Counted from the stretch's first letter, positions 15,568-33,634 are shown. The stretch is 33,850 bases of DNA from Methanotrichaceae archaeon (GCA_963803145.1 CAWDLW010000009.1:1-33850), one strand, 5' to 3'. Numbers and translations are program-made. Notes: generated from the sequence alone by a model not told the origin.

Positions 15568-15641
15568 GGGCTCGTGGTCTAGGTGGTTATGACGTCGCCT
15601 TGACATGGCGGAGATCATGCGTTCGAATCGCGTCGAGCCCA
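15568..15641 (+). tRNA. tRNA-Val(GAC)
   Basis: Acceptor GGGCTCG/CGAGCCC, anticodon arm TCGCC-TT-GAC-AT-GGCGG, T-loop GTTCGAATC. Confidence 0.95.
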
Positions 15642-15646
15642 TTAGT

Positions 15647-15719
<73 letters not shown>

Positions 15720-16700: not shown

Positions 16701-16904
16701 TATAATATTTTTTCCTGCATAGCCTTAGCCTCAGGCTCCATGCCCTCGATGTCTAGCCAAGATAAGGCCCTCTTTACTCAAGTTGTGGGCCTGCTCTTTG
16801 AGTTCCCTAGCCTTTTGCCGCGATGGCGTATCGTGCAGTCCTCTAGGGCTCCGGCATAACAGATAGAGGGAATCGTTATTCTAATCCCTTCAACCGTATG
16901 CATG

Positions 16905-16995
16905 CGCTTTCCAAAACCTTCCCCCAGCGAGGGGTTAGGGGCAGCCCGCGCGGCGATTGAGCGCGCTAGGAAAACCATTAGTTTTAGCCCCGGAA
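16905..16995 (-). repeat. GC-rich interspersed repeat, copy 2 (unoccupied candidate IS110 target at 16980..16989)
   Basis: TTCCCCCAGCGAGGGGTTAGGGGCAGCCCGCGCGGCGATTGAGCGCGCTAGGAAAACCATTAGTTTTAGCC aligns closely with 32271..32336. Confidence 0.85.
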
Positions 16996-17225
16996 GAAGC
17001 ATAGAGCCAATGATTATTTTCATTCGGGCGCACTTCAACACCTACTTGAAAATCATGATGGTTTATGATTGAATTTCATTCGTTAGGTACAATAAAGTCA
17101 AACGGCGGCACCCCGCAGCAAGCTGGTATATTCACTAAAAATGAATCGTTATCAATAAACACTTTCGGCTCACGAAGGACTAGTTTATTAATGCGTATGG
17201 GTATTTACCTTATGCCGGAAGAACC

Positions 17226-17504
17226 ATGGCCTATAAGCTCAACATCGATCCAAGAGCTGAGAGATTCCTAAAGAAGCTCAAAAAGAAAAATCCCAATGCT
17301 GCTTCAGTGATAGCGAATCATATTCTTGAGCTGAAAAGAAATCCTCACACTCCGCGCCCCATGTGCGATATTGTTAAGATTGTAGGCCGTGTTAATGAAT
17401 ACAGATTGAGGATAGGAAAAGTCAGGGCCGAATATACCGTAAATGGTAACGAGATAAATATCACAAATATATTTATAAAGAAACGCAGATCTGACTATCG
17501 ATGA
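17226..17504 (+). CDS. RelE/ParE-family toxin, copy 1
   Basis: Basic 92-aa protein: YKLNIDPRAERFLKKL...EYRLRIGKVRAEY...FIKKRRSDYR. Confidence 0.85.
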   Translation: MAYKLNIDPRAERFLKKLKKKNPNAASVIANHILELKRNPHTPRPMCDIVKIVGRVNEYRLRIGKVRAEYTVNGNEINITNIFIKKRRSDYR

Positions 17505-17543
17505 TCGATGCAGATATATATCAATGACGCGAGTTTATAAAAG

Positions 17544-17723
17544 ATGGCTTCGGTTGGAATCATAAAGGATAAGGAAATCCGAGAGCTTGACGCCTTCATA
17601 GATTCCTTAATAGATGAGGAAATAGATGAGCTGAACACAGATGAAGGCGGCGATGAGGAGACTATGCCTTTCGAGGAATTTTGCAAGATGGAAGGCATTA
17701 AGCTTCGAAAACCATCGGCTTAA
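17544..17723 (+). CDS. Acidic 59-aa putative antitoxin, copy 1 (not in ORF track)
   Basis: MASVGIIKDKEIRELDAFIDSLIDEEIDELNTDEGGDEETMPFEEFCKMEGIKLRKPSA*; follows the toxin and is intact in both copies. Confidence 0.7.
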   Translation: MASVGIIKDKEIRELDAFIDSLIDEEIDELNTDEGGDEETMPFEEFCKMEGIKLRKPSA

Positions 17724-17755
17724 CACCGCAGCATTTCCAATTTCGGTATATTGAT

Positions 17756-17916
17756 CTAGTCAACCAGAGATGGCTTTGCTTTTTTTCGGCATGCCTCGAC
17801 TTCATCAAGTAAGCGATTAACGATTTCATTGAATGTCTCTTTCTTTTTCCAAATCCGACTAGCCTATCCCTTGTGAAAGGCTTAGCCCTAATAGGGGTTG
17901 GCATTTCATCCGGCAA
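17756..17916 (-). pseudogene. Frameshifted small archaeal antitoxin/DNA-binding-like gene
   Basis: MPTPIRAKPFTRDRLVGFGK continues in another frame as ETFNEIVNRLLDEVEACRKKAKPSLVD*; the shift lies in a T-rich run near 17845. Confidence 0.5.
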
Positions 17917-17972
17917 AATTGATAATATCGTTTATTCTTATAGGTCGTTGTAACTGATCAATCGCTAGAATC

Positions 17973-18134
17973 TCATGTCTCTTTCTGGGCAGGGTATCCT
18001 CTTTGATCCAATTCTTTGTTTATGATCTCCTCAAGGAATTCTCCCATTTTCTTAGTGCTGCCTTGAGTCTCTATCAGGTATAGCCTGAGTCTCTTCAAAG
18101 TGCTATCGGATACTTCACCGGTGATCCTAGCCAT
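17973..18134 (-). CDS. 53-aa ribbon-helix-helix-like protein (not in ORF track)
   Basis: MARITGEVSDSTLKRLRLYLIETQGSTKKMGEFLEEIINKELDQRGYPAQKET*. Confidence 0.6.
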   Translation of the reverse strand: MARITGEVSDSTLKRLRLYLIETQGSTKKMGEFLEEIINKELDQRGYPAQKET

Positions 18135-18237
18135 AAAGCCCACTTTGTTGCCTCATTGTATTTATACCTAATATCTTTGAGTATTTAGTACTTTAATGCG
18201 TAAAGCATTTATACCCTAAAGCACTATAAGAAATATC

Positions 18238-18372
18238 ATGGCAGGAAAACTTAAACCCAAAATCACAAATCCCCAAACTCAAACAATCAAGAGCGGTAAA
18301 TCCCTTGTAAAGCTCTCAGTGCTCAAGCTCGAACTCTTCGGACCCAAGCCATCCAAGCCAGTCTTGGAGTGA
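18238..18372 (+). pseudogene. In-frame internally deleted paralog of 20095..20478
   Basis: MAGKLKPKITNPQTQTIKSGK...LELFGPKPSKPVLE keeps both termini but lacks about 83 central codons. Confidence 0.75.
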
Positions 18373-18938
18373 TTTTCATGGACTCCCCGATCTCCCAAGG
18401 CACGGATCGTGTACTGCCCAAATATCCAGCGCCTTTGCCCATAGCAGAGATTAATAATACACTAGGAGATCTTCAGCCCTTGGCGCCACGAATCCATGAG
18501 CTGAACAGGGAGATTCTTGAGAAGGAAGGCGAGGTATTAAAGGCAATCCTGGAGAAAATTGTACCTCTTATACCACTCATCGGCGAGGAGCTCGAAGCCT
18601 GCTATAGACGCAATCTGGTTATCCTCAAAAATACTCAAAGGGTAAATTTTGAAGGGGATGCTGCTTTCTATTCTGAGCATCAGCTGATTTTATACGAAAA
18701 TGGCGCGCTGGTGGATCAGCATAGATATGGAGAGAACACAATCAGCAAACGCATAGGATGGGAAATTACTGATGAGCATCACATAACACCTGCAGAGGCT
18801 ATAACCGCTTTCGGCTTAGGGGCTATTTCGGAGGGCTTGATAGCCGCGATTAAGGAGGCATCGCAGGTATTCATCCTGAAGGAAGAGCTGGAAAGCAAGC
18901 TAGATGATTTGATCGATGCCATGGACTCTCTCAAATGA
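18369..18938 (+). CDS. Hypothetical protein, paralog of 20475..21044 (~83% identity by manual count)
   Basis: Two intact 189-aa paralogs. Confidence 0.8.
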   Translation: MIFMDSPISQGTDRVLPKYPAPLPIAEINNTLGDLQPLAPRIHELNREILEKEGEVLKAILEKIVPLIPLIGEELEACYRRNLVILKNTQRVNFEGDAAFYSEHQLILYENGALVDQHRYGENTISKRIGWEITDEHHITPAEAITAFGLGAISEGLIAAIKEASQVFILKEELESKLDDLIDAMDSLK

Positions 18939-19256
18939 GGCCATCAAGAGCAAATGAAGCGGAGTGAGTGCACTCTATCGCCAGGCTGAAGGCTTGAAGA
19001 GTTGACAAAGGGCGGCGGTTTGATTATCGGTCAGACCCGGCCTAAATGCTCCCATATGTGGGAGGTCATCCGAAGATATGGAAAGCGTGAACTATTCATC
19101 TTGTGAGTCTATCATGTTAAGATCGAGTATGAGAGGAACTCAAATGATAATTAAGACCTTATGAAATATCCTTAAATAGCTATCAATAAACACTTTCGGC
19201 TCACGAAGGACTAGTTTATTAATGCGTATGGGTATTTACCTCATGCCGGAAGAACC

Positions 19257-19535
19257 ATGACCTATAAGCTCAACATCGATCCAAGAGCTGAGAGATTCCT
19301 AAAGAAGCTCAAAAAGAAAAATCCCAATGCTGCTTCAGTGATAGCGAATCATATTCTTGAGCTGAAAAGAGATCCTCACACTCCGCGCCCCATGTGCGAT
19401 ATTGTTAAGATTGTAGGCCGTGTTAATGAATACAGATTGAGGATAGGAAAAGTCAGGGCCGAATATACCGTAAATGGTAACGAGATAAATATCACAAATA
19501 TATTTATAAAGAAACGCAGATCTGACTATCGATGA
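19257..19535 (+). CDS. RelE/ParE-family toxin, copy 2
   Basis: Two amino-acid differences from copy 1. Confidence 0.85.
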   Translation: MTYKLNIDPRAERFLKKLKKKNPNAASVIANHILELKRDPHTPRPMCDIVKIVGRVNEYRLRIGKVRAEYTVNGNEINITNIFIKKRRSDYR

Positions 19536-19574
19536 TCGATGCAGATATATATCAATGACGCGAGTTTATAAAAG

Positions 19575-19754
19575 ATGGCTTCGGTTGGAATCATAAAGGA
19601 TAAGGAAATCCGAGATCTTGACGCATTCATAGATTCCTTAATAGATGAGGAAATAGATAAGCTGAACACAGATGAAGGCGGCGATGAGGAGACTATGCCT
19701 TTCGAGGAATTTTGCAAGATGGAAGGCATTAAGCTTCGAAAACCATCGGCTTAA
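19575..19754 (+). CDS. Acidic putative antitoxin, copy 2
   Basis: Two amino-acid differences from 17544..17723. Confidence 0.7.
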   Translation: MASVGIIKDKEIRDLDAFIDSLIDEEIDKLNTDEGGDEETMPFEEFCKMEGIKLRKPSA

Positions 19755-19851
19755 CACAGCAGCATTTCCAATTTCGGTATATTGATCTAGTCAACCAGAG
19801 ACGGCTCTGCTTTCTTTCGGCATGCTTCAACTTCATCGGAAGTATTGACCA

Positions 19852-19998
19852 TCAATCTTTAGCATGACGCTCTAAGTACTCCTCTATTGCTTTCGCGGCT
19901 ATATCGCTGGTTTTATTCGACTTTCCAGTACTCTTTAACGCGTATTCCTTGAGCTTTGCTTCCAATTCATCGCTTAGGTAAACTCCTATGCGGCCCAT
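19852..19998 (-). CDS. 48-aa CopG/ribbon-helix-helix protein (not in ORF track)
   Basis: MGRIGVYLSDELEAKLKEYALKSTGKSNKTSDIAAKAIEEYLERHAKD*, a classic beta-alpha-alpha pattern. Confidence 0.7.
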   Translation of the reverse strand: MGRIGVYLSDELEAKLKEYALKSTGKSNKTSDIAAKAIEEYLERHAKD

Positions 19999-20094
19999 GC
20001 TAGTGTACTACATCTCACTGGGTTTAATATGTTATGGCAGATTATCACTAATATACCAATAAGCTTATAAGCTTTAGGGCTAATAGTATTTAGC

Positions 20095-20478
20095 ATGGCA
20101 GGAAAACTGAAACCCAAAATCACAAATCCCCAAACTCAAACAATGAAGAGCGGTAAAGTCTTTGCAAAGTTCTCAGGGCTCAAGGAAGAGATGCCAAAGA
20201 TAATAATGCTCGCGGATAGTACAGCGCTTATCCTTTCCTCAAAGGCTGATCTCTATTATTATACGACTCTGAATAGCTGCAGCTGCCAAACCCGCGAAAA
20301 TCATACGATCCGCCATCTTATTCGTAATCTCCCCCAGGCAACCCGTGAGGCCTCGAAAAACTCAGAGCCGGGGTTGATCCGCATGATTCAGGCAGCTGAG
20401 GAGGATGCAAGCTCAAAGCTCGAGCTCTTCGGGCTAGAACTCTTCGGACCCAAGCCATTCAAGCCAGTCCTGGAGTGA
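20095..20478 (+). CDS. Hypothetical protein with degenerate SWIM-like motif
   Basis: YYTTLNSCSC...RH; the expected third Cys is absent. Confidence 0.55.
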   Translation: MAGKLKPKITNPQTQTMKSGKVFAKFSGLKEEMPKIIMLADSTALILSSKADLYYYTTLNSCSCQTRENHTIRHLIRNLPQATREASKNSEPGLIRMIQAAEEDASSKLELFGLELFGPKPFKPVLE

Positions 20479-21044
20479 TTATAATGGACCCTCCTATCTC
20501 TCAAGGCACGGAGCATGTACTGCTCAAATATCCAGCGCCTTTGCCCATAGCAGAGATTAATAGCGCTCTCGGAGATCTTCAGCCCTTGGCGCCGCAAATC
20601 CATGCGCTGAAGAAGGAGATTCTTGAGAAGGAAAGCGAGGTATTAAAGGCGATCCTGGAGAAAATTGTACCTCTTATACAACTCATCGGTGAGGATCTCG
20701 AAGCCTGCTATAGACGCAATCTGGTTATCCTCAAAAATACTCAAAGGGTAAATTTTGAGGGAGATGCCGCTTTCTATTCTGAGCATCAGCTGATTTTATA
20801 TGAAAACGGCGCGCTTGTAGATCAGCATAGATATGGAGAGAATACAACCATCAAACGCATCGGATGGGAAATTATCGATCAGCATCACATAACGCCTGCA
20901 GAGGCCATAACCGCTTTCGGCTTAGGGGCTATTTCTGAAGGCCTAATAGCGACAATTAAAGGGGCATCGCAATTATTCATCCAGAAGGAAGACTTAGAAA
21001 ATAGACTTAATACTCTAATAAATACCCTGGAGGCATTGAGATGA
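20475..21044 (+). CDS. Hypothetical protein, paralog of 18369..18938
   Basis: GTGA overlap with the upstream gene, as in the other unit. Confidence 0.8.
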   Translation: MIIMDPPISQGTEHVLLKYPAPLPIAEINSALGDLQPLAPQIHALKKEILEKESEVLKAILEKIVPLIQLIGEDLEACYRRNLVILKNTQRVNFEGDAAFYSEHQLILYENGALVDQHRYGENTTIKRIGWEIIDQHHITPAEAITAFGLGAISEGLIATIKGASQLFIQKEDLENRLNTLINTLEALR

Positions 21045-21401
21045 AAACCTCAACTTTTTAGACGACGACACCCGCCAATACTGCTAGCGGAAAATAGCTG
21101 CATGTGTGTGATTTTGCAAGAGTTTTCAAAAGCAAAAAGCAAAAGATCGCCGTATCCTCGTTGAAGTCTTTGGCATCAAGGTTTGATGCTGAAGTTATGG
21201 CAGACTATATTGCTAACTTCTAGATTCTTGTAACGGCCTGAAAGGAAAATCATGGATAGTGGGGATTATTCTGCCACCTGTCTCTTTATAATTATGGCAT
21301 CTGCCTTTAGACTCGCCTATATAGGGATATCCTAACTTTAGAATTGGAAACGCAAAATATATTATAGTAGACTTCCTTATTGCCTGTCTAAAGGTGATTC
21401 T

Positions 21402-21767
21402 ATGGCTACAGAACAGTTATCAATAGCAGATATCCCAAGCTTTACAGGTACTTGGACGGGTTCTTTTAAGGGATATGAACCTGGTAAGGGCTATGTGGAA
21501 GGAAATTTTACTTTAGAAGTCTCTGAGCAAAAGGGCCGGGCCTTCACTGGCACCTTCATAAAAAATTCGAGCGCAACTCAGGGTAAAGGACAGTTAACGC
21601 TAAGTTTTTTCGGTGTAATTGGTTTTGATAATAAGACCTTTTATACCGTTGATAGTAATGGACATAGTATAGGTAGCATCCTCTCAAATGATAACCTCCA
21701 AGTGGTATACCTGGGAAATGGAAAGAATTCTGGGGCGTATTTCGATATCGTTTATCGGAAAAAATAG
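21402..21767 (+). CDS. Hypothetical beta-rich protein
   Basis: 121 aa with FTGTWTGSF; GGTGA RBS upstream and T-tract downstream. Confidence 0.65.
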   Translation: MATEQLSIADIPSFTGTWTGSFKGYEPGKGYVEGNFTLEVSEQKGRAFTGTFIKNSSATQGKGQLTLSFFGVIGFDNKTFYTVDSNGHSIGSILSNDNLQVVYLGNGKNSGAYFDIVYRKK

Positions 21768-22091
21768 CGTTCAATTATCGAAATCAATCTTTTTTTGGCC
21801 TCAATTTATCTTAGGCAAATTTAGTCTGCAATCCTAATCGTAATCCTGTAACCCTGAAACTTCAGCATAGCTCGTTTTCTTTACACTGCCAAGATACATC
21901 TCCAGACCTGTTCGAAACGGAGGCAGCTTTAAATACGGTTGCTCAACTACCTGTCTACTAACAGGGGTTCAGTCCCAAATAATGGGTAAAAACCAGATAA
22001 AAGATGTTATAGGCAGGGATCACCTGCCTAAATTGGATTCTCACTAAGTTGAGCTCCCAGCAGCATTCCTGATATTGGAAGCATTTGTGGC

Positions 22092-22760
22092 TCAATTTGC
22101 GGACGTGTCACCGGATACAGAATATTGCGTGATGTAGGTACTGCCATCCTCGTTAACATTTACCTTATCGGTCTGGACTCCGAATAGTAAGCCGTCTGTC
22201 TTTCCATCTCCATTGCTGTCTAGAGCCAGAACTGGAGCTACTTCTTCATTAGTTAAATGCAGGTTATAGGTCCCTGGGGATATTGAGAGCTCCTTCTGTG
22301 ATAATGGTACCCAAAGGGCGTCTGCCTTTTTATCTCCATTCAAGTCGACAAGGTAAGCAGACAGTTGTATTCCGCTAATGGTAAATTTAGTCTGGGACTC
22401 TGATGAAGAAGTTGATACTGGGTTTGATGCTGAAGTTATGGCAGATGTTCCGGCAGCGTTTGCTCTTAGATCATCATCTGAAATCACTAGAATGGTACTA
22501 CCAGTGGCGGTTGTGGAGTTAGATTGACCAAGTGGCTTTTGGGAACCAATGCCGGATGTGGTATCAAGTGGCTTTGGAAAACCAATGCCTGATGTAGTAT
22601 CAAGCGGCTTTGGGAAACCAGCAGAGTTTTGGGTCGATACATTCGGGGACTCCTGTGATTTTATATGCCCACCACCACCCAGTGAATCCTGAGCCAAGGC
22701 ATCGACTGCCAGTCCTACGAGGAAACAAATAGCTAACGCTATTAAAAGTGCTTTTCTCAT
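22092..22760 (-). CDS. Secreted Ser/Thr-rich protein with 12-aa repeats and DxNGD motifs
   Basis: Signal peptide; GFPKPLDTTSGI repeats (36-bp units, 22529..22620); DLNGDKKAD and DSNGDGKTD; GGAGG RBS. Confidence 0.8.
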   Translation of the reverse strand: MRKALLIALAICFLVGLAVDALAQDSLGGGGHIKSQESPNVSTQNSAGFPKPLDTTSGIGFPKPLDTTSGIGSQKPLGQSNSTTATGSTILVISDDDLRANAAGTSAITSASNPVSTSSSESQTKFTISGIQLSAYLVDLNGDKKADALWVPLSQKELSISPGTYNLHLTNEEVAPVLALDSNGDGKTDGLLFGVQTDKVNVNEDGSTYITQYSVSGDTSAN

Positions 22761-22949
22761 ATTATAACGCCTCCTTTTGTTCTCAAAATATCCCTAATCA
22801 TTAATGTTATAAAAATGTTTGTAATTTTTGAACGATGAAACTTAATTAATGCGGGCTTCGACGACTTTTAAAAGCTAAAATATGAAAAATCCATATATAT
22901 TATTTAAAAGATTCTTGATAAATATTTTTAATAAGAATGAAAGATGAAA

Positions 22950-23014
22950 TAGAAAACAAACTTAATACGCTTATAAATACCCAGGAGGCATTGAGATGAG
23001 AGACTCAACTTTTT
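22950..23014. repeat. Orphan copy of the 3' end of the 189-aa gene (matches 20995..21059)
   Basis: TAGAAAACAAACTTAATACGCTTATAAATACCCAGGAGGCATTGAGATGA..CTCAACTTTTT versus TAGAAAATAGACTTAATACTCTAATAAATACCCTGGAGGCATTGAGATGA..CTCAACTTTTT. Confidence 0.85.
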
Positions 23015-23034
23015 GTTCATGAAAATATCGAAAC

Positions 23035-23490
23035 CTAGACAACCGTTTCGCCCTTCAGTTTTTTCCATTCTTTATACAGCGCCTGAATTTGCCTGTCCTT
23101 GATCATAAGGAGGGTCTTTACATCGGGAATTAAGAAGGTTATGCCGCCAATTGTGAGCGGATCACAATGGGCCGCTTCCAGAAGCTGGTATTCGTCACCC
23201 ATCCATACGTCTTTGATGAAGATTTGCAACGCGAACGATGCCAGATATATTCTGAGAAATATAATATCGTTGATTCCCGTGACAGTTTCCATCTTGCCGA
23301 ACGTTCTGAGCGCATGCACGATCCTGTCAGCCTCTTCATACGAGCAGCAGATATCGATATCTCTAGTGGCATCCTTCAAGCCATGCCACAGAAAAGCAGC
23401 ACCTGCGAATAAGTACACGTTGGTTGGGGCTTGAACTTTTGAGCCGATGTAGGCCAGGTCGGCCAATAGCTGCGCTTTATTCTCAATCAT
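23035..23490 (-). CDS. DUF6036-like (Pol-beta superfamily) nucleotidyltransferase
   Basis: YLFAGAAFLWHGLKDATRDIDI motif and LLMIK. Confidence 0.65.
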   Translation of the reverse strand: MIENKAQLLADLAYIGSKVQAPTNVYLFAGAAFLWHGLKDATRDIDICCSYEEADRIVHALRTFGKMETVTGINDIIFLRIYLASFALQIFIKDVWMGDEYQLLEAAHCDPLTIGGITFLIPDVKTLLMIKDRQIQALYKEWKKLKGETVV

Positions 23491-24258
23491 ATTCCCACGA
23501 CCCAAATCTTATTGTACCGATTCGTCCCTGTGCTTCAGAGCACTATGCCCTCTGCAATAATTGATGTTGGCGAGATGCAGGTTCATCTGGCGATCCAATT
23601 TCCCTCCAAACCAACAATCTTTCATGATATGCGGTTGTTATCCCGTTTACAGGCCAAATTTTGTCGTTCAAGATCATTTAGATGTTGGTCCATAATTCAT
23701 CATTTATTTCCAGAACTGCCACCCAGTCCTAGCTTTGGCTCCCGTCGATGAATGCGAAAGCTATTTTAACCTAAACCTTGAAGGCGTTACCTATCTATAT
23801 AGGCGGCGAATGAGCGTAGGTCAAACCTCCTTTGGGTTATCAATAGTTCTTCTTACGCCTGCGCTCCGCTCTAGCCTTTCGGGGCCGGTTACCAGGAGGA
23901 TTCAGTTGATCAACTTTATCTGAACCACCCCTGCTTTTATGTAATTCCTCGAATTCCTTGCTGCAAAAAGCTTTACTGCTATCAGTTCAGGTTGTTCTAT
24001 CTGGATATGCCGGTTCAACCACTCATCTCAACAACAAAGTTAATATTTTAGAACAGTAAATGATGCCATAGCCAGCAAGCTATGGCAAAAGCCTCGTTTT
24101 TAATTCACCCGGGTCTTCCCGGCTGGTCGGAAGGCCCATGAACCCTTTCAAGCGGTACATACTTTGAGGCGTCCCTCTTCCCAATCAGCAGTCCTAAATG
24201 TAGGAATTGGGTAGAAATTCAAGCCTAACTAACGCCGCAAAACTTCAATCCCCAGCCC

Positions 24259-25981: not shown

Positions 25982-26159
25982 AGAAGACCCGCTCCCTTTT
26001 AAGAAGAGTTAAGGCTGGAGATAAACCAGGCTATCCTCGATTCAAAGGTTAAGGCTAGTTTAGTCGTTCAGGTATCCACAGGCCGGTTTCAAGCTTGAAG
26101 GCTCAAAGCTGACTCTTCCCAAGATAGGTTCTATCAGGATCTTCAAACACCGAGGTTAA
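25982..26159 (+). pseudogene. IS200/IS605 TnpB remnant with an end-like motif
   Basis: Translates LRRVKAGDKPGYPRFKG*G*F/SFRYPQAGFKLEGSKLTLPKIGSIRIFKHR (2 stops, 1 frameshift); preceded by AGAAGACCCGCTCCCTTT. Confidence 0.8.
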
Positions 26160-26175
26160 CTTTACACCCCTCTAA

Positions 26176-26270
26176 TTCCGGGGCGCCCGCGAGTCGCTTC
26201 GCTCCCGCGCTAGCTGTTTACGGGGCTGTCGCTCAGTCGCCGCGACGGGCTAACGCCCTCCGGGATGGTT
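26176..26270 (+). repeat. GC-rich interspersed repeat, copy 3 (diverged)
   Basis: TTCCGGGGC..CGCGCTAGCTGTTTACGGGGCTGTCGCTCAGTCGCCGCGACGGGCT; compensatory stem GTCGC/GCGAC. Confidence 0.7.
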
Positions 26271-26463
26271 CATGCGAGAAGAGACTACAGGTTGATTGAT
26301 TGCTTGTCTCCTCGCCTGCCAGCCAGCCCTTTGTGATCATGGCCTCCTTTCACCAGATGTCATGATAGATATAGATTATGACGTTCTCGATTCAGTCAAA
26401 TCCCCAAACAGAAATGTTAATAGTGATGAATGGCAGATACGCCAATAGAGGAGGAAAATTCAA

Positions 26464-26808
26464 GTGGATTATCCCCTGGCGATCTCGCCCGACCTGCAAA
26501 TAGATGCCAAAGAGTTCACGTCTGCCTGGAACCAGCAGCCTGAGAGCAGCAAGATAGCCCACGCCCAAATGGCCACAGCCGCCAAAGAGAGCTATCCTTT
26601 CATAACTCCAGAGATGATTAATCAGGGTTTGGTGCTGCTGGCGGGAGTTGCAGGTACCATCGCCATTGATGTAGTTAAAGATGTGATTAAGGAGCGCATT
26701 TCGAAGATGCTTTCTGCCCGATTTGGCTCCAAAGCTCTTCCGCCTTTTGAGGTTATAGTTATCCAGCCTGGTGACAAAACCATGATCATAGTCAAGCCCA
26801 CTGCCTGA
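26464..26808 (+). CDS. Small protein with a central Gly/Ala-rich hydrophobic helix (EACC1-like), partner of the CHAT-STAND gene
   Basis: GAGGAGG RBS (26448..26454); GLVLLAGVAGTIAIDVVKDVIK; C-terminal beta hairpin; ends 20 nt upstream of the CHAT gene. Confidence 0.7.
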   Translation: MDYPLAISPDLQIDAKEFTSAWNQQPESSKIAHAQMATAAKESYPFITPEMINQGLVLLAGVAGTIAIDVVKDVIKERISKMLSARFGSKALPPFEVIVIQPGDKTMIIVKPTA

Positions 26809-26828
26809 TCCAACTCAGAGGATCTCCC

Positions 26829-29800
26829 ATGACACTTATAACCATCCGTGAGACTGGCAGTATAACTGATAGCCCAAATGCCTTTGTAAGCTTTGACCGT
26901 CAAGGTGAGTATCCTATCACGATCACCAATCCCTTCTCAAAGGATGATGAGAAGGACCTGGAGTGGTACTTTGAGAAGTATCTGCGGTTCCCTTTTCTTG
27001 AGGGCGTCAGGGTTGACAAAGCCGAAAAGAGCATTCTCGCATACGGTCAAGCACTCTTCGAACAGGTATTCAAAGACAGAGATGCCTATGGCCAGTACGC
27101 TCAGGCTCGACAAAACGGCATAGAGAACATCCAGTTCGAAATCGAGGGTTCATCAGGGTTCTTCCATCAGATGCATTGGGAAGCTCTTAAAGATCCGAAA
27201 TGGCCCAATCCTTTCGTGCTCGAGGCACCCATGGTTCGGAGCATCAAAAAATCATCTGTTATACAAGCTCAATGCCAGCCCTCGCCTACAATCAATCTTC
27301 TTATAGTTACTGCCAGGCCGGATGGCAGACAGGATGTTGGCTACCGAACTATATCCCAGCCTCTTGTCGAGAGCCTGCAACAGGCCAAAATACCCGTGAA
27401 TATAGATATACTGAGACCGGGGACCTATAAAGCCCTGACAGATCATCTTGATTCAGTTCGAGATAAACACGGCAAGGGCTATTACCACATAATTCACTTC
27501 GATTTACACGGCGCCCTGGAAACATACGAACAACTCAAGCAGGATGCTAAGGCCGATAGACTCCTCTTCCAGAAGCGCTATGGTCGAAAGGACTATCCTT
27601 CTTTTGAGGGTCAGAAGGCCTTTCTGTTCTTCGAGACGGATAAGTCTGGCCAGGCCGATCCTGCTGAAGCTACCGAGGTCGCAGAGCTGCTTATAAGCCA
27701 CCAGATACCTATTGTAGTTCTTAACGCCTGCCAGTCAGGCAAGCTCACGGAATACACAGAATCCAGCCTTGGCAGCAGGCTGCTTGAGGCCGGAGTGCAG
27801 ACAGTCGTGGCTATGAGCTATTCTGTTACTGTCAGCGCAGCATCTCGGATGATGTCTGAGCTATACAGCAAGCTGGTCGACAGGGCAGATCTAGCTCATG
27901 CTCTATGCCATGCTCGTAAGGCTCTGGCTGATGAGAAGGATCGTAGAGCCTATTTCAACCAGACCATAAACCTCGAGGACTGGATGCTGCCTGTAGTCTA
28001 CCAGAGCGGCGGAGCGAAGGCCAAACCGGCTCTGAACCTTAGGGATTTCAAGCCTGTAGAGCAGGCAGAATACTGGGAAAGGCTGGCTGAACTTTATGAA
28101 GCTCCCGAACCGACTTATGGGTTTGTTGGCCGGGACTTGGATATTTTGGAAGCTGAGCGACGGGTTCTGAGTACAAGCGAAGGCAAAAGACGAAATATAT
28201 TGCTTATCCAGGGCATGGGCGGATCAGGCAAAACCACGTTGCTCAAGCATTTGATGGAGTGGTGGCAGACAACTGGGTTCGTGCAGGAGATGTTCTACTT
28301 CGGGTATGATGAACGAGCCTGGAGCCTGGAGCAGATCATGTATGAGATAGCTCAGAAACTGCTTGCTGACAAACCTCATGCGCCCAGGACCTTTAGGCTG
28401 GAGAGCTTCATGGGCATGAATCAGGCAGCCCAGGGAAAGATGCTAGGCAATAAGTTGCGCAGCGAGCATCATCTGCTGGTGCTGGACAATATGGAATCCA
28501 TAACTGGCACGAATCTCGCCATAAAGAATACTCTGAAACCCGAGGAGCAACAGGCTCTACGTTCGTTCCTTTCAGATCTTCTGGGAGGCGAAACTATAGT
28601 GCTTCTTAGCTCACGCGGCAGTGAGGAGTGGTTGGCCGAAGGCTCAAATGCGCCACTGAGGAAGAACGATATTTATAGCCTGCCCGGTCTGGATACTGAG
28701 GCAGCTTCTACCCTTGCCGAGAGGGTACTCGAGAGGCATATCGGCGATTCCGAGAAGAGGAGCAAATATCGCCAGAGCGATGATTTCAAGGAGCTTCTGA
28801 AGATTCTGGATGGCTATCCTTTGCCCATACAAGTGGTCATGGCTAACCTGTCTTCCCAAGAGCCTTCGGAGATTCTGAAAGCCTTCAAAGAGGGAGGGAT
28901 GATTCAGGATGGGACCATCCCGAGCAAGACAGAGAATATCATGCTCTGTATCGATTACTCGCACGGCAACCTCGCTCCAGAGGCCCAGAGGCTTCTGATG
29001 TGCCTGGCGCCATTTACAGGAGTCGTATATAAGCTTCTTATAGAGAAGTATACGAAATACCTGAAGGCCCAGCCTGCCCTGGCGGATCTGAGGTTCGATA
29101 TGTGGGGTGAGGTGTTCAAGGCCACTGAGGCCTGGGGACTAATCACGCTATATAAAGAGCCTGGATATGAAGTGCCTGGGTATCTGAGGCTTCAGCCCGT
29201 TCTGCCCTACTTCTTGCGAATACGTCTCAACCAGGAGCCTCAGATGCGTCAGGCAATTGAAACTGCCTTTAGGCAGATCTATGATGTTTTTGGATATCAA
29301 ATGAGCGATATAATGCAATCCAAACAACCTGACCCAAAGCAGGCAGGCCAGGCACTCGCCATGTTGGAGTACGAGAACTTGATAACAGCTCTGGAGCTGG
29401 ACCTAAAAGCACAGGTGTCTGTTAGCGGACCCTATTCTGCTCTTTCTCGTTATTTAGATATCACAAAGGACCAGAGTCGAGGTCTGGAGCTGGGTGAAAA
29501 GATCATGGCCGGGCTTGAAGGCTATCCGCCTGCGATCCTGGAAGGGCAGATCGGATTTGATATCGTGGCTGTCATGAGTAATGAGATAGCCGAACGCCAG
29601 CTCAAGCTCAAAAAATTTTCAGAAGCCGAGGCGTCATATCAGAAGGCCCTGAAGCTGCTCGATTGTTTGATGAATATCGATGAGAAGTCAAAAGCCGATG
29701 CAAAAGCTGTGATATACCATAATCTGGGCAGGGTGGCTCAGGAGCAAATACAATGGAACCAGGCTGAAGACTACTACAAGAAGGCTATCGAGATCAAAAT

Positions 29801-30659
29801 AGAGCTCAACGATCGCTATAATCAGGCCTCAACTTACCATCAGCTAGGCATAGTGGCCAAGGGGCAAAGACAATGGAACCAGGCTGAGGACTACTACAAG
29901 AAGGCTATCGAGATCTACATCGAGTTTAACGATCGCTATGGTCAGGCAATGCCATACCTTAGTCTGGGTGTGATGGCCCAGGAACAAAGACAATTGAAAC
30001 TGGCTGAGGATTACTACAAGAAAGCTCTCGAGATCTACATCGAGTTCAACGATCGCTATGATCAGGCCGGAACATACCATAATCTGGGCATGGTGGCCCA
30101 GGAACAAAGACAATTGAAACAGGCTGAGGATTACTACAAGAAAGCTCTCGGGATCTACGTCGAGTTCAACGATCGCTATGATCAGGCCTCAAATTACTAT
30201 CAGCTGGGTACAGTGGCCCAGGAACAAAGACAATGGAACCAGGCTGAGGATTACTACAAGAAAGCTCTCGAGATCTGCGTAGAGTTTAGCGATCGCTATA
30301 ATCAGGCAAAGCCATACCATAATCTGGGCATGGTGGCCCAGGAACAAAGACAATTGAAACAGGCTGAGGATTACTACAAGAAAGCTCTCGAGATCTGCGT
30401 AGAGTTTAACGATCGCTATAATCAGGCAAAGCCGTACCATCAGCTGGGCATGGTGGCCCAGGAACAAAGACAATTGAAACAGGCTGAGGATTACTACAAG
30501 AAAGCTCTCGAGATCTGCATAGAGTTCAATGACCAACCAAGCGGCACAGTCGTTCTTAGTAGTCTATCTCGCTTATGGAAGGCCACCACTGACGAGCGGA
30601 TACTTGCTGAAATCGCACAGATTTTGAGTATCTCCCAAGAGGATGTGAAAGAACTATAG
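26829..30659 (+). CDS. CHAT (caspase-like) protease - STAND/NB-ARC NTPase - TPR protein
   Basis: His-Cys dyad in IIHFDLHG and VVLNACQSG; FVGR; Walker A GMGGSGKT; Walker B LLVLDNME; GYPLPI; 40-aa TPRs. Confidence 0.92.
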   Translation: MTLITIRETGSITDSPNAFVSFDRQGEYPITITNPFSKDDEKDLEWYFEKYLRFPFLEGVRVDKAEKSILAYGQALFEQVFKDRDAYGQYAQARQNGIENIQFEIEGSSGFFHQMHWEALKDPKWPNPFVLEAPMVRSIKKSSVIQAQCQPSPTINLLIVTARPDGRQDVGYRTISQPLVESLQQAKIPVNIDILRPGTYKALTDHLDSVRDKHGKGYYHIIHFDLHGALETYEQLKQDAKADRLLFQKRYGRKDYPSFEGQKAFLFFETDKSGQADPAEATEVAELLISHQIPIVVLNACQSGKLTEYTESSLGSRLLEAGVQTVVAMSYSVTVSAASRMMSELYSKLVDRADLAHALCHARKALADEKDRRAYFNQTINLEDWMLPVVYQSGGAKAKPALNLRDFKPVEQAEYWERLAELYEAPEPTYGFVGRDLDILEAERRVLSTSEGKRRNILLIQGMGGSGKTTLLKHLMEWWQTTGFVQEMFYFGYDERAWSLEQIMYEIAQKLLADKPHAPRTFRLESFMGMNQAAQGKMLGNKLRSEHHLLVLDNMESITGTNLAIKNTLKPEEQQALRSFLSDLLGGETIVLLSSRGSEEWLAEGSNAPLRKNDIYSLPGLDTEAASTLAERVLERHIGDSEKRSKYRQSDDFKELLKILDGYPLPIQVVMANLSSQEPSEILKAFKEGGMIQDGTIPSKTENIMLCIDYSHGNLAPEAQRLLMCLAPFTGVVYKLLIEKYTKYLKAQPALADLRFDMWGEVFKATEAWGLITLYKEPGYEVPGYLRLQPVLPYFLRIRLNQEPQMRQAIETAFRQIYDVFGYQMSDIMQSKQPDPKQAGQALAMLEYENLITALELDLKAQVSVSGPYSALSRYLDITKDQSRGLELGEKIMAGLEGYPPAILEGQIGFDIVAVMSNEIAERQLKLKKFSEAEASYQKALKLLDCLMNIDEKSKADAKAVIYHNLGRVAQEQIQWNQAEDYYKKAIEIKIELNDRYNQASTYHQLGIVAKGQRQWNQAEDYYKKAIEIYIEFNDRYGQAMPYLSLGVMAQEQRQLKLAEDYYKKALEIYIEFNDRYDQAGTYHNLGMVAQEQRQLKQAEDYYKKALGIYVEFNDRYDQASNYYQLGTVAQEQRQWNQAEDYYKKALEICVEFSDRYNQAKPYHNLGMVAQEQRQLKQAEDYYKKALEICVEFNDRYNQAKPYHQLGMVAQEQRQLKQAEDYYKKALEICIEFNDQPSGTVVLSSLSRLWKATTDERILAEIAQILSISQEDVKEL
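29701..30540 (+). repeat. Seven tandem 120-bp coding repeats (40-aa TPR units)
   Basis: Units start at 29701, 29821, 29941, 30061, 30181, 30301 and 30421, with high nucleotide identity. Confidence 0.95.
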
Positions 30660-30722: not shown

Positions 30723-31220
30723 ATGGGTAGAAAACCTATAATAATTAGGCATATATCAAAGATAGACCTTGATAAATTATATAAAAAAGAGACTGATCTA
30801 AGGATTAAGGAACGGTTATTGGCAATAATACATTTATATGAAGGGAAAAACGTATATGAGGTAGCTGATATTTTAAAAAGGGGCGAGAGGACAATAAAAT
30901 ATTGGTTAAGCAGATGGAATAATCAAGGCTATAATGGATTGACACCAAAGAATAGAAATGGCAAAAAGCCAAAGATGTCTCTTGATGAATGGGATAGAGT
31001 TATTAAAGAAATTGAAGACAAAGGAATGACGATAAAAGACGTATTAAAATATGTAAGGGATACAAGAGGTATAGATTTTTCATATAAATATGGCTGGCGA
31101 ATTTTAAGAGTAGTGAAAAAAGTTAAGTATGGGAAACCATACATCAGAAATGAAAAGAGGCCTGCAGATGCAGAAAGTTTTTTAAAAAAGGATAAAATCA
31201 GTGCTGACCACTGTTACTGA
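30723..31220 (+). CDS. IS630 transposase OrfA (HTH)
   Basis: RIKERLLAI...VADIL...WLSRWNNQGYNGL. Confidence 0.85.
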   Translation: MGRKPIIIRHISKIDLDKLYKKETDLRIKERLLAIIHLYEGKNVYEVADILKRGERTIKYWLSRWNNQGYNGLTPKNRNGKKPKMSLDEWDRVIKEIEDKGMTIKDVLKYVRDTRGIDFSYKYGWRILRVVKKVKYGKPYIRNEKRPADAESFLKKDKISADHCY

Positions 31221-31728
31221 TCCTGTTATAGGATTTCTTGATGAAAGCTCTTTACAACAGCGCCCTAATACACGTAGAGTCTTAAACACTCATTTAATAA
31301 ATTATAAACCTGGAAAGGTTAGATCAAGAACTATTTTTGGATTTATAGCATTAAATGGCAATGATGAGGTTATGGTTTCCAACTCCTCTAAGAAGGAAGC
31401 GTTGATGGCATTTGCTCAAAATATAAGAAATAATAATATTATGAGGCCAATTTGTATACTTTTAGATAATGCTAGAATTCATTTGGCCAAGAAATTTAGA
31501 AAACTAGCTGAGGAAATCGATATTCACTTAATTTATAATATCCCCTATTCACCAGATTTGAATCCTATAGAATTCGGTTGGAAGGATTTCAAAAGAGAGA
31601 TCGCCAAATACACTGATTTCGATGAAGCTATTATAGCTAGCCAAGATTGCGCTTTAGAAATATTTTATTCCAAAAAGGATGGATATTCAAAGTCCTGGGT
31701 GGAGCGATTTCTTAGTGCAAAAAGCTAG
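31186..31728 (+). CDS. IS630 transposase OrfB (DDE), reached by frameshift at the T6A6G run
   Basis: FLDES, LLDNARIH and PYSPDLNPIE motifs; frame is open from 31186. Confidence 0.85.
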   Translation, partial: KRIKSVLTTVTDPVIGFLDESSLQQRPNTRRVLNTHLINYKPGKVRSRTIFGFIALNGNDEVMVSNSSKKEALMAFAQNIRNNNIMRPICILLDNARIHLAKKFRKLAEEIDIHLIYNIPYSPDLNPIEFGWKDFKREIAKYTDFDEAIIASQDCALEIFYSKKDGYSKSWVERFLSAKS

Positions 31729-32374: not shown

Positions 32375-33634
32375 CTATCCACCCCCTACCGAATGTCTAT
32401 TCTTCAAGTGATAAAAGGCGTCTACGATAGCAGCCACTCCATCCTTTAATCGGTCATCTTTTGATAGATAGAGGAGGTCCCTTTTGACTGGTTTTGATGC
32501 AGCTGTAGTGCATTTGTTCTCTTGATATAGCTCTTGATTGATCAGCAGATGATAAATTATTGTGATTAATTTCCGTGCTAAAGCAGTGATCGCTACATTG
32601 TAACTCTTTCTGGCCGATAATCTATGGAAGTACCTTGAGAGCTTGTTCTTGTTATTTCTCATCTTAGCTATCACTTGAGCTATCTCGACAAGCATAGTTC
32701 TGAGACTCTTGGACCCCTGTTTCGTAATACCACATTGCTTCTTTTTCCCTGCAGATTCGTGTAGTCCAGGAACCAATCCACACCATTTAGCGATTTGTTC
32801 TGGGGTTTGGAAATCGTGATAGTCACCGATTTCTGCCAAGATGGTCGACCCTGATCTAAAACTTATTCCTGGAATTGACATAACTATTGCCAGATCTTTA
32901 GCGCTTTTCTGAAATTTGCTAAGCACTTCAAGACTTGTTTTATCTATCTTCTTTTTCAGAAGATCAAGGAGCTCTAGATTATCCTTAACAAGCATTCTCG
33001 AAGTATCATCAAGACCGTTTGCAAGAGCCGCTTTGATGACGTCTCGCTTTTTCTTGATCTTCTTTGAAGTGATTCTGTCCAGGATCGAGTCTGCATCCTT
33101 GCCTTCAACCAGGCCGTCCAAGATAATCCTGCCTGATTTACCAAAGATGTCTGAAATACAAGAACTCAGCTTTATGCCGCAAAGTGCTAGATACTTATGA
33201 ACTCTGTTTCTAAGTTGAGTTTGAGTCTTTATATATCCTGATCTGGCACGGGTCATCATTCTGAGGGCTCTATCCTCATTGGAAAAGACTCTTGATCTCT
33301 TGATTTTGCCATCCAAGCAGTTACCTGCAATCCTCTTAGCGTCATGAGAATCCGACTTATCCCCTACAAGTCCTTTGACCATCCATGGATTTGCTACAAT
33401 TGTATCAATAGAGGGACTCAGGCAATCGTATACTGGAAACCAGTAAACACCTGTAGCTTCGAATGCTACTTGCTCGCAATTATTGGCTATGAGCCAATTC
33501 CTGAATCTCTCTAGCTCAGAACGAGTCGTGCCAAACTGTTCCTGGATTTCAGTCCCATCTGCATCTTCGATCGTGGCTACTATGAGATCTTTATGGACAT
33601 CTGCTCCGCAAACTCTATCTCTTCGTTTGCCCAT
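32375..33634 (-). CDS. IS110-family DEDD recombinase/transposase
   Basis: GADVHK, FEATG, KSDSHDA, SIPGI, AEIGD, catalytic-Ser loop HESAG and ALARKL; frame intact. Confidence 0.95.
   Translation of the reverse strand: MGKRRDRVCGADVHKDLIVATIEDADGTEIQEQFGTTRSELERFRNWLIANNCEQVAFEATGVYWFPVYDCLSPSIDTIVANPWMVKGLVGDKSDSHDAKRIAGNCLDGKIKRSRVFSNEDRALRMMTRARSGYIKTQTQLRNRVHKYLALCGIKLSSCISDIFGKSGRIILDGLVEGKDADSILDRITSKKIKKKRDVIKAALANGLDDTSRMLVKDNLELLDLLKKKIDKTSLEVLSKFQKSAKDLAIVMSIPGISFRSGSTILAEIGDYHDFQTPEQIAKWCGLVPGLHESAGKKKQCGITKQGSKSLRTMLVEIAQVIAKMRNNKNKLSRYFHRLSARKSYNVAITALARKLITIIYHLLINQELYQENKCTTAASKPVKRDLLYLSKDDRLKDGVAAIVDAFYHLKNRHSVGGG

Follow-up and report, generated by a model that had tools for sequence, protein, structure and literature searches.

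In this study, we analysed a 33,850-nucleotide stretch of DNA from a Methanotrichaceae archaeon (GCA_963803145.1, CAWDLW010000009.1:1-33850), referred to here as the window, and describe two adjacent genes which, by analogy with bacterial systems, probably constitute a self-contained protease-effector module of the EACC1-caspase type. The first gene encodes a 114-aa protein that would be a latent substrate and effector, and the second, with which it would be co-transcribed, encodes an NLR-like CHAT sensor of 1276 aa. Because the window module resembles bacterial EACC1-protease modules, we regard it as the archaeal representative of a system whose kind is known, and the locus as a new and rare archaeal member of an already described type. 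The features of the locus are collected in Table 1.

Table 1. Features of the two-gene locus and its flanks (positions counted from the first nucleotide of the window)
Feature	Position	Strand	Basis
TnpB N-terminal remnant, stop-broken, outside the module	26003..26154	+	blastn
Dispersed repeat, about 160 bp, between TnpB remnant and module	26155..26314	.	blastn
Shine-Dalgarno-like GGAGG upstream of the small gene	26450..26454	+	read from sequence
EACC1-like small protein (114 aa), putative latent effector	26464..26808	+	ORF, GTG start
Putative cleavage loop of small protein, residues 38-49, with aromatic-x-[D/E]-P motif (Y44...T48-P49 in the window protein)	26575..26610	+	AF2, alignment
Hydrophobic segment rich in small residues, 55-87 (strand 56-61, turn AGVAGT, helix 68-87)	26626..26724	+	Kyte-Doolittle, AF2
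C-terminal beta-hairpin of small protein, strands 95-100 and 107-112	26746..26799	+	AF2 models
CHAT-NACHT-TPR protein (1276 aa), putative sensor/protease	26829..30659	+	ORF, Pfam
CHAT caspase-like protease domain, residues 94-378 (H227 27507-27509, C301 27729-27731)	27108..27962	+	PF12770 E 3e-19
NACHT/STAND NTPase, residues 458-635 (Walker A 28212-28235, Walker B 28473-28490)	28200..28733	+	PF05729 E 9e-10
TPR sensor array, residues about 935-1250	29631..30578	+	TPR_12 E 2e-69
Flanking transposase, an HTH ORF overlapping a DDE_3 ORF	30723..31728	+	Pfam HTH_23, DDE_3
IS110-family transposase, flank	32375..33634	-	Pfam DEDD_Tnp_IS110, Transposase_20

The two genes and their pairing

Judged from its homologues, the 114-aa gene is genuine. 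An earlier note on this DNA had placed it, with a strong ribosome-binding site, 20 nt before the 1276-aa gene, and this holds: a GGAGG lies 9 nt before the GTG, and 20 nt separate the stop of the small gene from the start of the large one. The small protein has 23 homologues of 101-130 aa with 60-79% identity and belongs to a large, unannotated family (210 representative clusters with E<=1e-3); it matched nothing in Pfam, PADLOC or NCBIfam. A fusion to EAD7 (PF19960, E 6e-20) occurs in one member of the family, and Ktedonobacteraceae and Anaerolineae MAGs are recorded as sources of members, both of which we treat only as leads towards EACC1.

The earlier note had made its reading depend on the small gene occurring together with a protease, and the gene neighbourhoods bear this out. 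A homologue of the large gene, with 51-66% identity, lies directly downstream in 6/6 of the further archaeal loci that carry the small gene, and the N-terminus of a large-protein homologue follows directly on the same strand, at a distance of 4-374 nt, in 46 of the 54 testable metagenome loci (those, out of 61, whose sequence continues for 150 nt or more past the small gene). In local alignments (tblastn/blastp), the large protein shares 47-57% identity with the downstream genes of the metagenome loci. A CHAT domain is present in 21/21 of the downstream ORFs of at least 344 aa and a NACHT domain as well in 17/17 of those of at least 668 aa, that is, the architecture is constant within the subfamily of the window protein among ORFs of sufficient length. 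The archaeal loci have these two genes alone in common, while their neighbours all differ. On comparative sequence grounds, the small and the large gene form a conserved module. This module is carried by 7/105 genomes of the host's order, and among 401 genomes sampled from the host's phylum it was found in the window's own genome alone.

The CHAT-NACHT-TPR protein

The intact CHAT His/Cys dyad, STAND Walker A/B motifs and TPR array that had been noticed in the large protein were confirmed by Pfam, by motif positions and by alignment. The CHAT domain matches PF12770 with 69.9 bits (cut-off 24), and the match contains both the His-Gly and the Ala-Cys of the dyad, within HFDLHG at residues 223-228 and NACQSG at residues 299-304 (C301). 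Across 24 aligned homologues, H223, H227, G228 and C301 do not vary, and A300 is nearly invariant (>=90%). The NACHT domain matches PF05729 with 39.1 bits (cut-off 26.7) and has the NLR-like order of Walker A (GMGGSGKT, 462-469) and Walker B (LLVLDN, 549-554) followed by a repeat sensor; residues G462-T469 are nearly invariant in 24 aligned large-protein sequences. The DNA encoding the TPR array holds a 120-bp tandem repeat at 29714-30529 (6.8 copies, 86% match; TRF), and the number of TPR repeats varies among orthologues.

Antiviral STAND proteins of the Avs and bacterial NLR-like (bNACHT) kinds consist of an N-terminal effector, a central STAND NTPase and a C-terminal repeat sensor. The large protein is likewise tripartite; however, its N-terminal domain is a protease, which is proposed to act on a separate effector protein. 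For the large protein, PADLOC returned only generic TPR and weak chat matches, and we have therefore given it no specific Avs type.

Predicted fold of the small protein

The small protein is confidently predicted to fold as an alpha+beta domain in which a Gly/Ala-rich hydrophobic segment is buried. The AF2 models reached a pLDDT of 84.5 with 24 aligned sequences and of 89.8 with 110 aligned sequences, the latter with a pTM of 0.82 and five models all at 85-90. The order of elements is strand-helix-strand, loop, helix-strand-helix and hairpin, giving a five-stranded alpha+beta arrangement. Residues 57-75 (VLLAGVAGTIAIDVVKDVI) have the top 19-residue Kyte-Doolittle mean of the protein, 1.85, which is borderline for a membrane helix. 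The earlier note had described a small amphipathic effector with a Gly/Ala-rich hydrophobic helix; in the model, the protein is a folded domain that buries the hydrophobic segment, and not simply an amphipathic helix. In the hairpin, the position of G104 (in relatives, part of a QPDG-type turn) shows a conservation of at least 90%.

The loop proposed as the cleavage region, on the model of Asp49 in the EACC1 protein of Ktedonobacter, coincides with the least confident stretch of the 110-sequence model (residues 41-50, lowest block pLDDT, 78). In the 110-sequence alignment, the column of T48 is occupied by D in 66 sequences and by E in 17 (D/E 83/110), the column of P49 holds P in 89/110, and column 44 holds F or Y in 97/110. 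The window protein itself has Thr48, in contrast to the Asp/Glu of most relatives, and its close relatives are split between D (11), T (8), S (3) and P (2), which makes the putative cleavage site or its specificity uncertain. A cut after residue 48 was computed to give fragments of 5.3 and 7.0 kDa.

Comparison with EACC1 and other known systems

An EACC1-caspase two-gene system has been predicted by Kaur et al. (2020; PMC7159879), according to whom the product of the 5' gene has one conserved hydrophobic helix with a central small-residue patch, flanked by short alpha+beta extensions, and the product of the 3' gene has an N-terminal caspase followed by variable domains including STAND NTPases and repeats; these systems were found among actinobacteria and, sporadically, among proteobacteria. 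In a later study, the EACC1 protein of Ktedonobacter racemifer was cut at Asp49 by caspase-Avs12 into 5.7 and 7.1 kDa fragments, of which the C-terminal one was toxic and pore-forming, with liposome leakage only after cleavage, and the N-terminal one was modelled in a sheet with two C-terminal strands; it was shown that bacterial EACC1-protease modules kill infected cells via pores (Evans et al., 2025; bioRxiv 10.1101/2025.11.14.688446). Nowhere in the main text of this preprint is the word 'archaea' used. The novelty implied by the earlier note was thus overstated, the two-gene system having been described in 2020 and tested in 2025, and the mechanism that it had put forward (sensor oligomerisation, CHAT cleavage and a membrane-damaging fragment) matches that shown there for Ktedonobacter EACC1/caspase-Avs12 (Evans et al., 2025). 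Its interpretation is in part supported, for a system type already described.

The features named by Kaur et al. (2020) are found in the window pair. A small 5' gene, whose product falls in the size range of about 105-120 aa, directly precedes a gene for an N-terminal caspase-superfamily peptidase followed by a variable region, here a STAND NTPase (NACHT) and repeats (TPR); a hydrophobic helix with many small residues at the centre of the protein (GLVLLAGVAGTIAIDVV, Kyte-Doolittle mean 1.85) has strands and helices on either side in the AF2 model, although in this globular model the segment is buried and not a free membrane helix. As in Ktedonobacter EACC1, the family conserves an acidic residue around position 48-49, within a loop that is exposed, the N-terminal part is modelled in one sheet with the C-terminal strands, and the predicted fragments of 5.3/7.0 kDa compare with 5.7/7.1 kDa as reported (Evans et al., 2025). 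Unlike the EACC1 systems of these two papers, the window module is hosted by an archaeon, and unlike Ktedonobacter EACC1, the window protein has Thr in place of Asp at its putative P1 position. The sensor is of the NACHT-TPR kind, and the catalytic Cys, C301, is preceded by a longer N-terminal region than the catalytic Cys at residue 152 of the Ktedonobacter protease (Evans et al., 2025), which suggests that the two proteases may not be close relatives.

The EACC1-like character of the small protein, as claimed in the earlier note, is favoured by architecture and synteny but not by the Pfam model. PF19953 (Pfam EACC1, cut-off 23.6 bits) did not match the window protein at E<=10 or anything in the whole genome, and it matched 0/97 representatives of the family at E<=0.01 and 0/110 members at E<=10. 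The best named clusters in a protein atlas were those of PF19953 EACC1 (score 0.88 for the window protein; 0.89, 0.88 and 0.88 for its relative P0181), which is a lead only. Since clusters labelled EACC1 in this atlas have a Pfam match in only 19-46% of their members, the PF19953 model is insensitive. With 0/110 matches to it, membership in EACC1 rests on architecture, synteny and the language-model lead.

Proteases adjacent to bacterial gasdermins are reportedly fused in some cases to an NLR-like sensor, and activation is said to be the proteolytic loss of an inhibitory part. The window pair is similar to bacterial gasdermin systems (Johnson et al., bioRxiv 10.1101/2021.06.07.447441) in that a proposed latent pore-former lies beside a caspase-like or CHAT protease; however, the small protein has only 114 aa and an unrelated alpha+beta fold, and its inhibitory part would be N-terminal. 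An identity as gasdermin was rejected: Pfam and PADLOC gave no gasdermin match, and the best structural matches of the model, eL22 (Z 7.7) and POTRA (Z about 5.5), are generic. With the Pepco and Trypco systems described by Evans et al. (2025), the module shares a small non-enzymatic effector gene 5' of a protease-STAND sensor and, as proposed here, a single activating cut. In contrast to these families, the window protein is modelled as an alpha+beta monomer, and a Pfam search with it gave no match to Trypco or Pepco.

Proposed mechanism and alternative explanations

In the mechanism that we propose, a trigger, probably a viral protein, would bind to the TPR array and the NACHT domain would oligomerise, which would bring the CHAT domains together. 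CHAT may then cut the small protein within its exposed loop (residues 38-49), separating an N-terminal beta-alpha-beta cap (about 5.3 kDa) from a C-terminal part (about 7.0 kDa) that would keep the hydrophobic Gly/Ala-rich segment and the beta-hairpin. The freed C-terminal fragment would oligomerise and permeabilise the membrane, resulting in cell death or arrest and hence abortive infection. A bolder version, which we put forward as doubtful, holds that the small protein represents a distinct family, as yet without annotation, of membrane effectors released by a caspase, which would either be a sister of Pfam EACC1 or have no tie to it and would be locked to one CHAT-NACHT-TPR partner across bacteria and archaea, that the module entered a single methanogen lineage once, that it would have to act on the ether-lipid membranes of archaea, and that its putative cleavage site has drifted from acidic to Thr/Ser. 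Such a drift would suggest that the specificity of the protease co-evolves with its substrate, and if this version were true, the module would for the first time allow inflammasome-like cell death by pore formation to be studied in an archaeon.

Strict synteny would suit any obligate partnership, and the small protein might instead associate with the membrane as a sensor, an adaptor or an anchor and serve to activate or localise the caspase-NLR, which would then cleave itself or other cellular targets. Kaur et al. (2020), who originally proposed this role for EACC1, suggested that the small-residue patch points to a membrane-associated sensor activating the constant caspase domain, and Evans et al. 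(2025) cite PCaspase, caspase-like prokaryotic proteases, as characterised defence-associated systems. We nevertheless consider this role unlikely, as the AF2 model is compact and soluble with its hydrophobic segment buried, and deletion of the tested EACC1 is reported to have abolished toxicity while the C-terminal fragment alone was toxic (Evans et al., 2025). An inhibitor, antitoxin or chaperone that silences the caspase-NLR, and whose loss or cleavage frees the protease onto other substrates, would also agree with the tight linkage and conserved synteny. The small gene comes first in the pair, which is a common order in toxin-antitoxin-like pairs. A purely inhibitory role would, however, leave the conserved hydrophobic core and hairpin unexplained, and with no precedent in the EACC1 literature consulted (Kaur et al., 2020; Evans et al., 2025) it seems to us very improbable. 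Amyloid-like motif signalling, as in bacterial BASS and fungal HET-s, would require that a motif at the N-terminus of the NLR be matched by the C-terminal strands of the small protein. Strand-rich ends (FEVIVIQPGDKTMIIVK and MTLITIRETG) and the position of the small gene immediately upstream of the NLR speak in its favour; yet the C-terminal strands belong to a confident globular fold in the AF2 model, the NLR N-terminus is occupied by a protease domain, and local alignment of small-protein C-termini with NLR N-termini gave a mean score of 17.3 across the 24 true pairs, as against 17.45 among non-pairs and 17.05 (sd 3.6) after shuffling. With true pairs scoring the same as shuffled ones there is no matching motif in this comparison; the pair was rejected as a BASS/amyloid-signalling pair, and this disfavoured explanation is hardly credible.

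The module may also function as proposed in a cleavage-activated manner, but serve cell death that is triggered by stress or is part of development, or else conflict among kin where the host is colonial or filamentous, and not defence against viruses. Against this, its repeat-variable TPR array and patchy distribution (7/105 genomes) resemble defence genes, for which repeat-variable sensors and patchy distributions are typical. Inspection of the neighbour genes revealed no defence island around the window locus, whose flanks are mobile elements, or around the other archaeal loci, and this lack of flanking defence genes would fit a role outside defence. Also in line with such a role are the listing of 650 multicellular organisms among 671 with EACC1 systems (Kaur et al., 2020, Table 1) and fusions of EACC1-proteases to DnaK-like chaperones, in connection with which stress responses have been raised (Evans et al., 2025). 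The sole EACC1 system tested responds to phage tail connector proteins (Evans et al., 2025), and we judge a purpose other than defence to be quite unlikely.

Genomic surroundings

The TnpB remnant, repeats and IS elements that had been reported to flank the pair were found again by blastn and Pfam. At least 16 further copies of the dispersed repeat at 26155-26314, with 82-92% identity, are present on 12 contigs of the same genome; the repeat matched no Rfam family and has a fold z-score of -0.07. The TnpB remnant shares 72-85% identity (blastn) with three sequences of the same genome (C12:19901-20048, C15:12701-12853 and C8:511929-512099), each located about 230 nt upstream of an OrfB_IS605 domain in a full frame of 373-391 aa.

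The gene pair and its conservation

An earlier note, made from the sequence alone, had proposed that a small amphipathic effector and a CHAT-STAND-TPR protein are encoded here side by side and form an inflammasome-like abortive-infection module. The pair of open reading frames, the CHAT, NACHT and TPR domains (Pfam) and the His/Cys and Walker motifs are all present, as had been claimed. Across 24 aligned homologues of the large protein, there is no variation at H223, H227 or C301 and hardly any in the Walker A residues. The DNA encoding the TPR array is itself a tandem repeat, and the number of TPR repeats varies among orthologues, which suggests that the sensor region has recently expanded or been homogenised. 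A PDB sequence search with the CHAT region found nothing. The small protein has neither a Pfam match, even at E ≤ 10, nor a PADLOC match, and an NCBIfam match to a response regulator (E 0.04; 13.6 bits, where the cut-off is 119) lies far below threshold and is evidently spurious.

Features of the module, its two proteins and its flanks
Feature	Position	Strand	Remarks
Methyltransferase and ADP-ribosylglycohydrolase genes			Upstream of the module
TnpB N-terminal remnant	26003-26154		Stop-interrupted; found by blastn
Dispersed repeat	26155-26314		About 160 bp, GC-rich
GGAGG	26450-26454	+	9 nt 5' of the small-gene start
Small ORF	26464-26808	+	114 aa, GTG start
Large ORF	26829-30659	+	1276 aa; 20 nt past the small gene, same strand
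CHAT domain, large protein	residues 94-378		Pfam E 3e-19, 69.9 bits (cut-off 24)
HFDLHG motif, large protein	residues 223-228		
NACQSG motif, large protein	residues 299-304		Contains C301
NACHT domain, large protein	residues 458-635		Pfam E 9e-10
Walker A GMGGSGKT, large protein	residues 462-469		
Walker B LLVLDN, large protein	residues 549-554		
TPR array, large protein	residues ~935-1250		TPR_12 E 2e-69
Tandem repeat encoding the TPR array	29714-30529		120 bp, 6.8 copies, 86% match
Two-ORF transposase	30723-31728		Downstream; HTH ORF and overlapping DDE_3 ORF
IS110-family transposase			Downstream flank
AF2 elements, small protein	residues 2-112		Strand 2-7; helices 15-31; strand 32-37; loop; helix 49-54; strand 56-61; helix 68-87; hairpin 95-100/107-112

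Gene-neighbourhood conservation had been proposed as a check on this pairing, and the pair is indeed kept elsewhere. In the order to which this archaeon belongs, the small gene occurs in 7 of 105 genomes, representing 4 of 16 genera and including the window's own, and at all six other archaeal loci it is followed directly, on its own strand, by a gene for a homologue of the large protein (51-66% identity). Four of these six downstream genes extend far enough for CHAT and NACHT to be seen, three of the four being complete with TPR, and the other two end at a contig edge after 174 and 273 aa. The two genes are the only constant part of these loci; the genes around them differ from one archaeal lineage to the next, with CLC channels, IS110 with CDC48, or genes of tryptophan synthesis.

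With a 30-sequence alignment of non-archaeal members, 61 metagenome loci were retrieved, and from the source names of the family and the taxa of the protein-language-model atlas we assume most of these contigs to be bacterial. Seven loci with less than 150 nt beyond the small gene were left out of the pairing count. In 46 of the other 54, tblastn places the N-terminus of a large-protein homologue 4-374 nt downstream on the same strand, mostly at 47-57% identity (the shortest partial matches go down to 38% and one is at 60%). No such downstream N-terminus was detected by tblastn at the remaining eight (L032, L055, L056, L066, L069, L072, L073 and L076), three of which match the small protein only partially. 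ORF calling gives 36 loci with an ORF of 120 aa or more downstream, and 34 of these ORFs match the large protein by blastp; CHAT is found in all 21 downstream ORFs of at least 344 aa, and NACHT also in all 17 of at least 668 aa. At locus L032, a small gene closely follows the C-terminal TPR region of a large-protein homologue (positions 1-300), an arrangement suggestive of tandem modules. The small genes of L044, L048 and L074, whose ends deviate from the consensus of the family, may be frameshifted.

The small-protein family and its modelled fold

A word-indexed search, with 32 candidates, gave 24 proteins at E ≤ 0.01, that is the window's own and 23 relatives of 101-130 aa with 60-79% identity; a profile of these, run on 1.84 billion representatives, matched 210 clusters at E ≤ 1e-3, of which 42 reach 1e-10 and 3 reach 1e-30. 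Family members are nearly all 100-125 aa long. They share an N-terminal block M-x-Y-x-I-A-L-x-P-x-L...F..AWN, an aromatic-x-[D/E]-P motif near residue 45-49, a Gly/Ala/Ser-rich hydrophobic stretch followed by a DLIK-like motif, and a C-terminal PDG turn followed by LLVV. In a 110-sequence alignment of the family, the column of T48, a residue in the putative cleavage region, has D in 66 sequences and E in a further 17, the P49 column is P in 89 of 110, and 97 of 110 have F or Y in column 44; among the close relatives of the window protein the T48 column reads D in 11, T in 8, S in 3 and P in 2. Named sources of family members are Ktedonobacteraceae and Anaerolineae MAGs. Longer, fused forms of the small protein were sought and none was found, in a search that we rate as weak evidence. 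Viral contigs yielded no relative, tblastn with two family members yielded no match among plasmids, and a PDB sequence search with the family profile found nothing.

It is in the shape of the small protein that we depart from the earlier note, which had described a small amphipathic effector with a Gly/Ala-rich hydrophobic helix. AF2 buries this segment, which is modelled as a strand-turn-helix within a soluble alpha+beta fold rather than as a free amphipathic helix. With the 24-sequence alignment the pLDDT was 84.5 (five models at 52.7-84.5), and with the 110-sequence alignment it was 89.8 with a pTM of 0.82, all five models lying at 85-90 and having the same elements. The blocks of lowest pLDDT are residues 41-50 (78) and 61-70 (79), and the first of these loops bears the conserved aromatic-x-[D/E]-P motif. 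Foldseek found no match to the model in the PDB at E ≤ 0.001. The best matches of a wide VIA search, ribosomal protein eL22 (Z 7.7) and POTRA (Z about 5.5), reflect a generic alpha+beta likeness and fall within the range to be expected with no true relative.

Comparison with the EACC1 system

The window protein fits the published description of the EACC1 system point by point. In that system, the 5' gene product is a small domain that has alpha+beta extensions and a single conserved hydrophobic helix bearing a small-residue patch; the 3' gene product has at its N-terminus a caspase-superfamily peptidase, to which any of some 50 domains can be fused, STAND NTPases and repeats among them (Kaur et al., 2020, PMC7159879). 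EACC1 is at times fused to EAD domains (PMC7159879), which is paralleled by one member of the small-protein family that is fused to EAD7. For the Ktedonobacter racemifer EACC1 and caspase-Avs12, it has been reported that EACC1 and the catalytic Cys are both required for toxicity, that caspase-Avs12 cleaves EACC1 at Asp49 into fragments of 5.7 and 7.1 kDa, that toxicity is confined to the C-terminal fragment and that EACC1 causes liposome leakage only once cleaved; in the authors' model, the N-terminal fragment and two C-terminal strands make up one sheet (Evans et al., 2025, bioRxiv 10.1101/2025.11.14.688446). A predicted cut after residue 48 of the window small protein would give fragments of 5.3 and 7.0 kDa.

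There are also differences. The putative P1 residue is Thr in the window protein, whereas it is Asp49 in the tested EACC1, and the catalytic Cys is at position 301 rather than 152, which points to a longer N-terminal region and possibly to a different protease subfamily. The partner is fixed as NACHT-TPR in the window's subfamily. The host here is an archaeon, whereas Kaur et al. name only bacterial groups in the text, describing the system as widespread in actinobacteria, found sporadically in proteobacteria and strongly tied to multicellularity (PMC7159879). Likewise, the word 'archaea' is absent from the main text of Evans et al. (10.1101/2025.11.14.688446). The supplements of both papers may include archaeal members or the small-protein family itself.

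The Pfam EACC1 model, PF19953, does not match the window small protein at E ≤ 10 or anything in its genome. It matched 0 of 97 among the best 150 representatives at E ≤ 0.01, 0 of 110 aligned family members at E ≤ 10, and nothing above cut-off in 401 genomes of the phylum, where seven weak matches were judged to be noise. In the protein-language-model atlas, the nearest named clusters are PF19953 (score 0.88, rank 16, for the window protein), and for a relative, P0181, the top three named matches are all PF19953 (0.89, 0.88 and 0.88); with all scores below 0.9, we take these as leads only. The atlas clusters are mostly from Actinomycetota and Chloroflexota. A Pfam PF19953 match is present in only 19-46% of the members of those PF19953 clusters, which indicates that the model is insensitive even for its own clusters. 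The small protein is thus a probable member, as a candidate, of the EACC1 family in a broad sense.

From these comparisons we predict, with reasonable confidence, that the locus works like an EACC1-caspase module. The small protein might possibly be a sensor or adaptor, as in the original idea about EACC1, or possibly an inhibitor; both readings fit less well with the tested precedent and with the modelled fold. A complex prediction with CHAT residues 1-420 and the small protein gave 0.60, 0.06 and 0.22 in separate runs and is counted neither for nor against. Amyloid signalling was rejected, as the similarity of the small-protein C-terminus to the NLR N-terminus (17.3) is not in excess of that of shuffled sequences (17.05, sd 3.6). 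With regard to the biological role, some other form of regulated death in place of virus defence is possible.

The observation is real, and its interpretation in the earlier note was largely right. Systems of this type are already known and have experimental support in bacteria; the novelty lies in an intact member in an archaeon, rare within the phylum, and in a small-protein family that is unrecognised by Pfam. As this CHAT-NACHT-linked family of more than 200 clusters escapes Pfam, it would be missed by domain-based defence finders. Caspase-activated pore-forming effectors with NLR-like sensors tie prokaryotic defence to the logic of the eukaryotic inflammasome, and such couplings have so far been described and tested in bacteria only. 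The archaeal copy, with its orthologues in a few related methanogens, offers a concrete system in which to ask whether inflammasome-like logic operates in archaea and against their viruses, and whether a small effector of this type permeabilises ether-lipid membranes.

Distribution and genomic setting

With the family profile, a sample of 401 genomes from across the phylum gives only the window's own genome and, weakly, one stop-containing sequence. A quick, unrooted maximum-likelihood tree built from 24 large proteins places the five archaeal sequences on one side of a branch (SH-aLRT 99), which would fit a single acquisition by the archaeal lineage, the tree carrying no direction of transfer. 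The small gene is single-copy in the window's genome. Two further CHAT proteins are encoded there (contig C25, 10563-11444 and 53735-54301; open frames of 671 and 913 aa), and no copy of the small gene accompanies them.

The TnpB remnant, repeat and transposases that had been noted around the pair were recovered. The TnpB remnant has 72-85% identity to sequence lying about 230 nt 5' of the OrfB_IS605 domains in full-length genes elsewhere in the genome, which has about ten full-length TnpB copies above the OrfB_IS605 cut-off; it was missed by the PF01385 profile because it lies N-terminal to that domain. The dispersed repeat next to it has at least 16 further copies (82-92% identity) on 12 contigs of the genome, matches no Rfam family, has an ordinary fold energy (z -0.07) and may be a MITE-like element. 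The downstream transposase is split into HTH and DDE_3 ORFs, a pattern to be expected if it is read by programmed frameshifting or if the copy is broken. The module has no other defence gene next to it.

The remainder of the window contains housekeeping genes, such as those for carbamoyl-phosphate synthase, RNase P RNA and tRNAs. A phosphoglucomutase/phosphomannomutase is apparently divided into two ORFs on the minus strand (1920-2570 and 1258-1821; domains I-II are in one and III-IV in the other), which may reflect a frameshift or an assembly error. From 15945 to 23505 there is a series of ORFs of 121-251 aa without a Pfam family and with lower GC (0.39-0.45); as it comes after two tRNA genes (15568-15719), it may be an integrated element.
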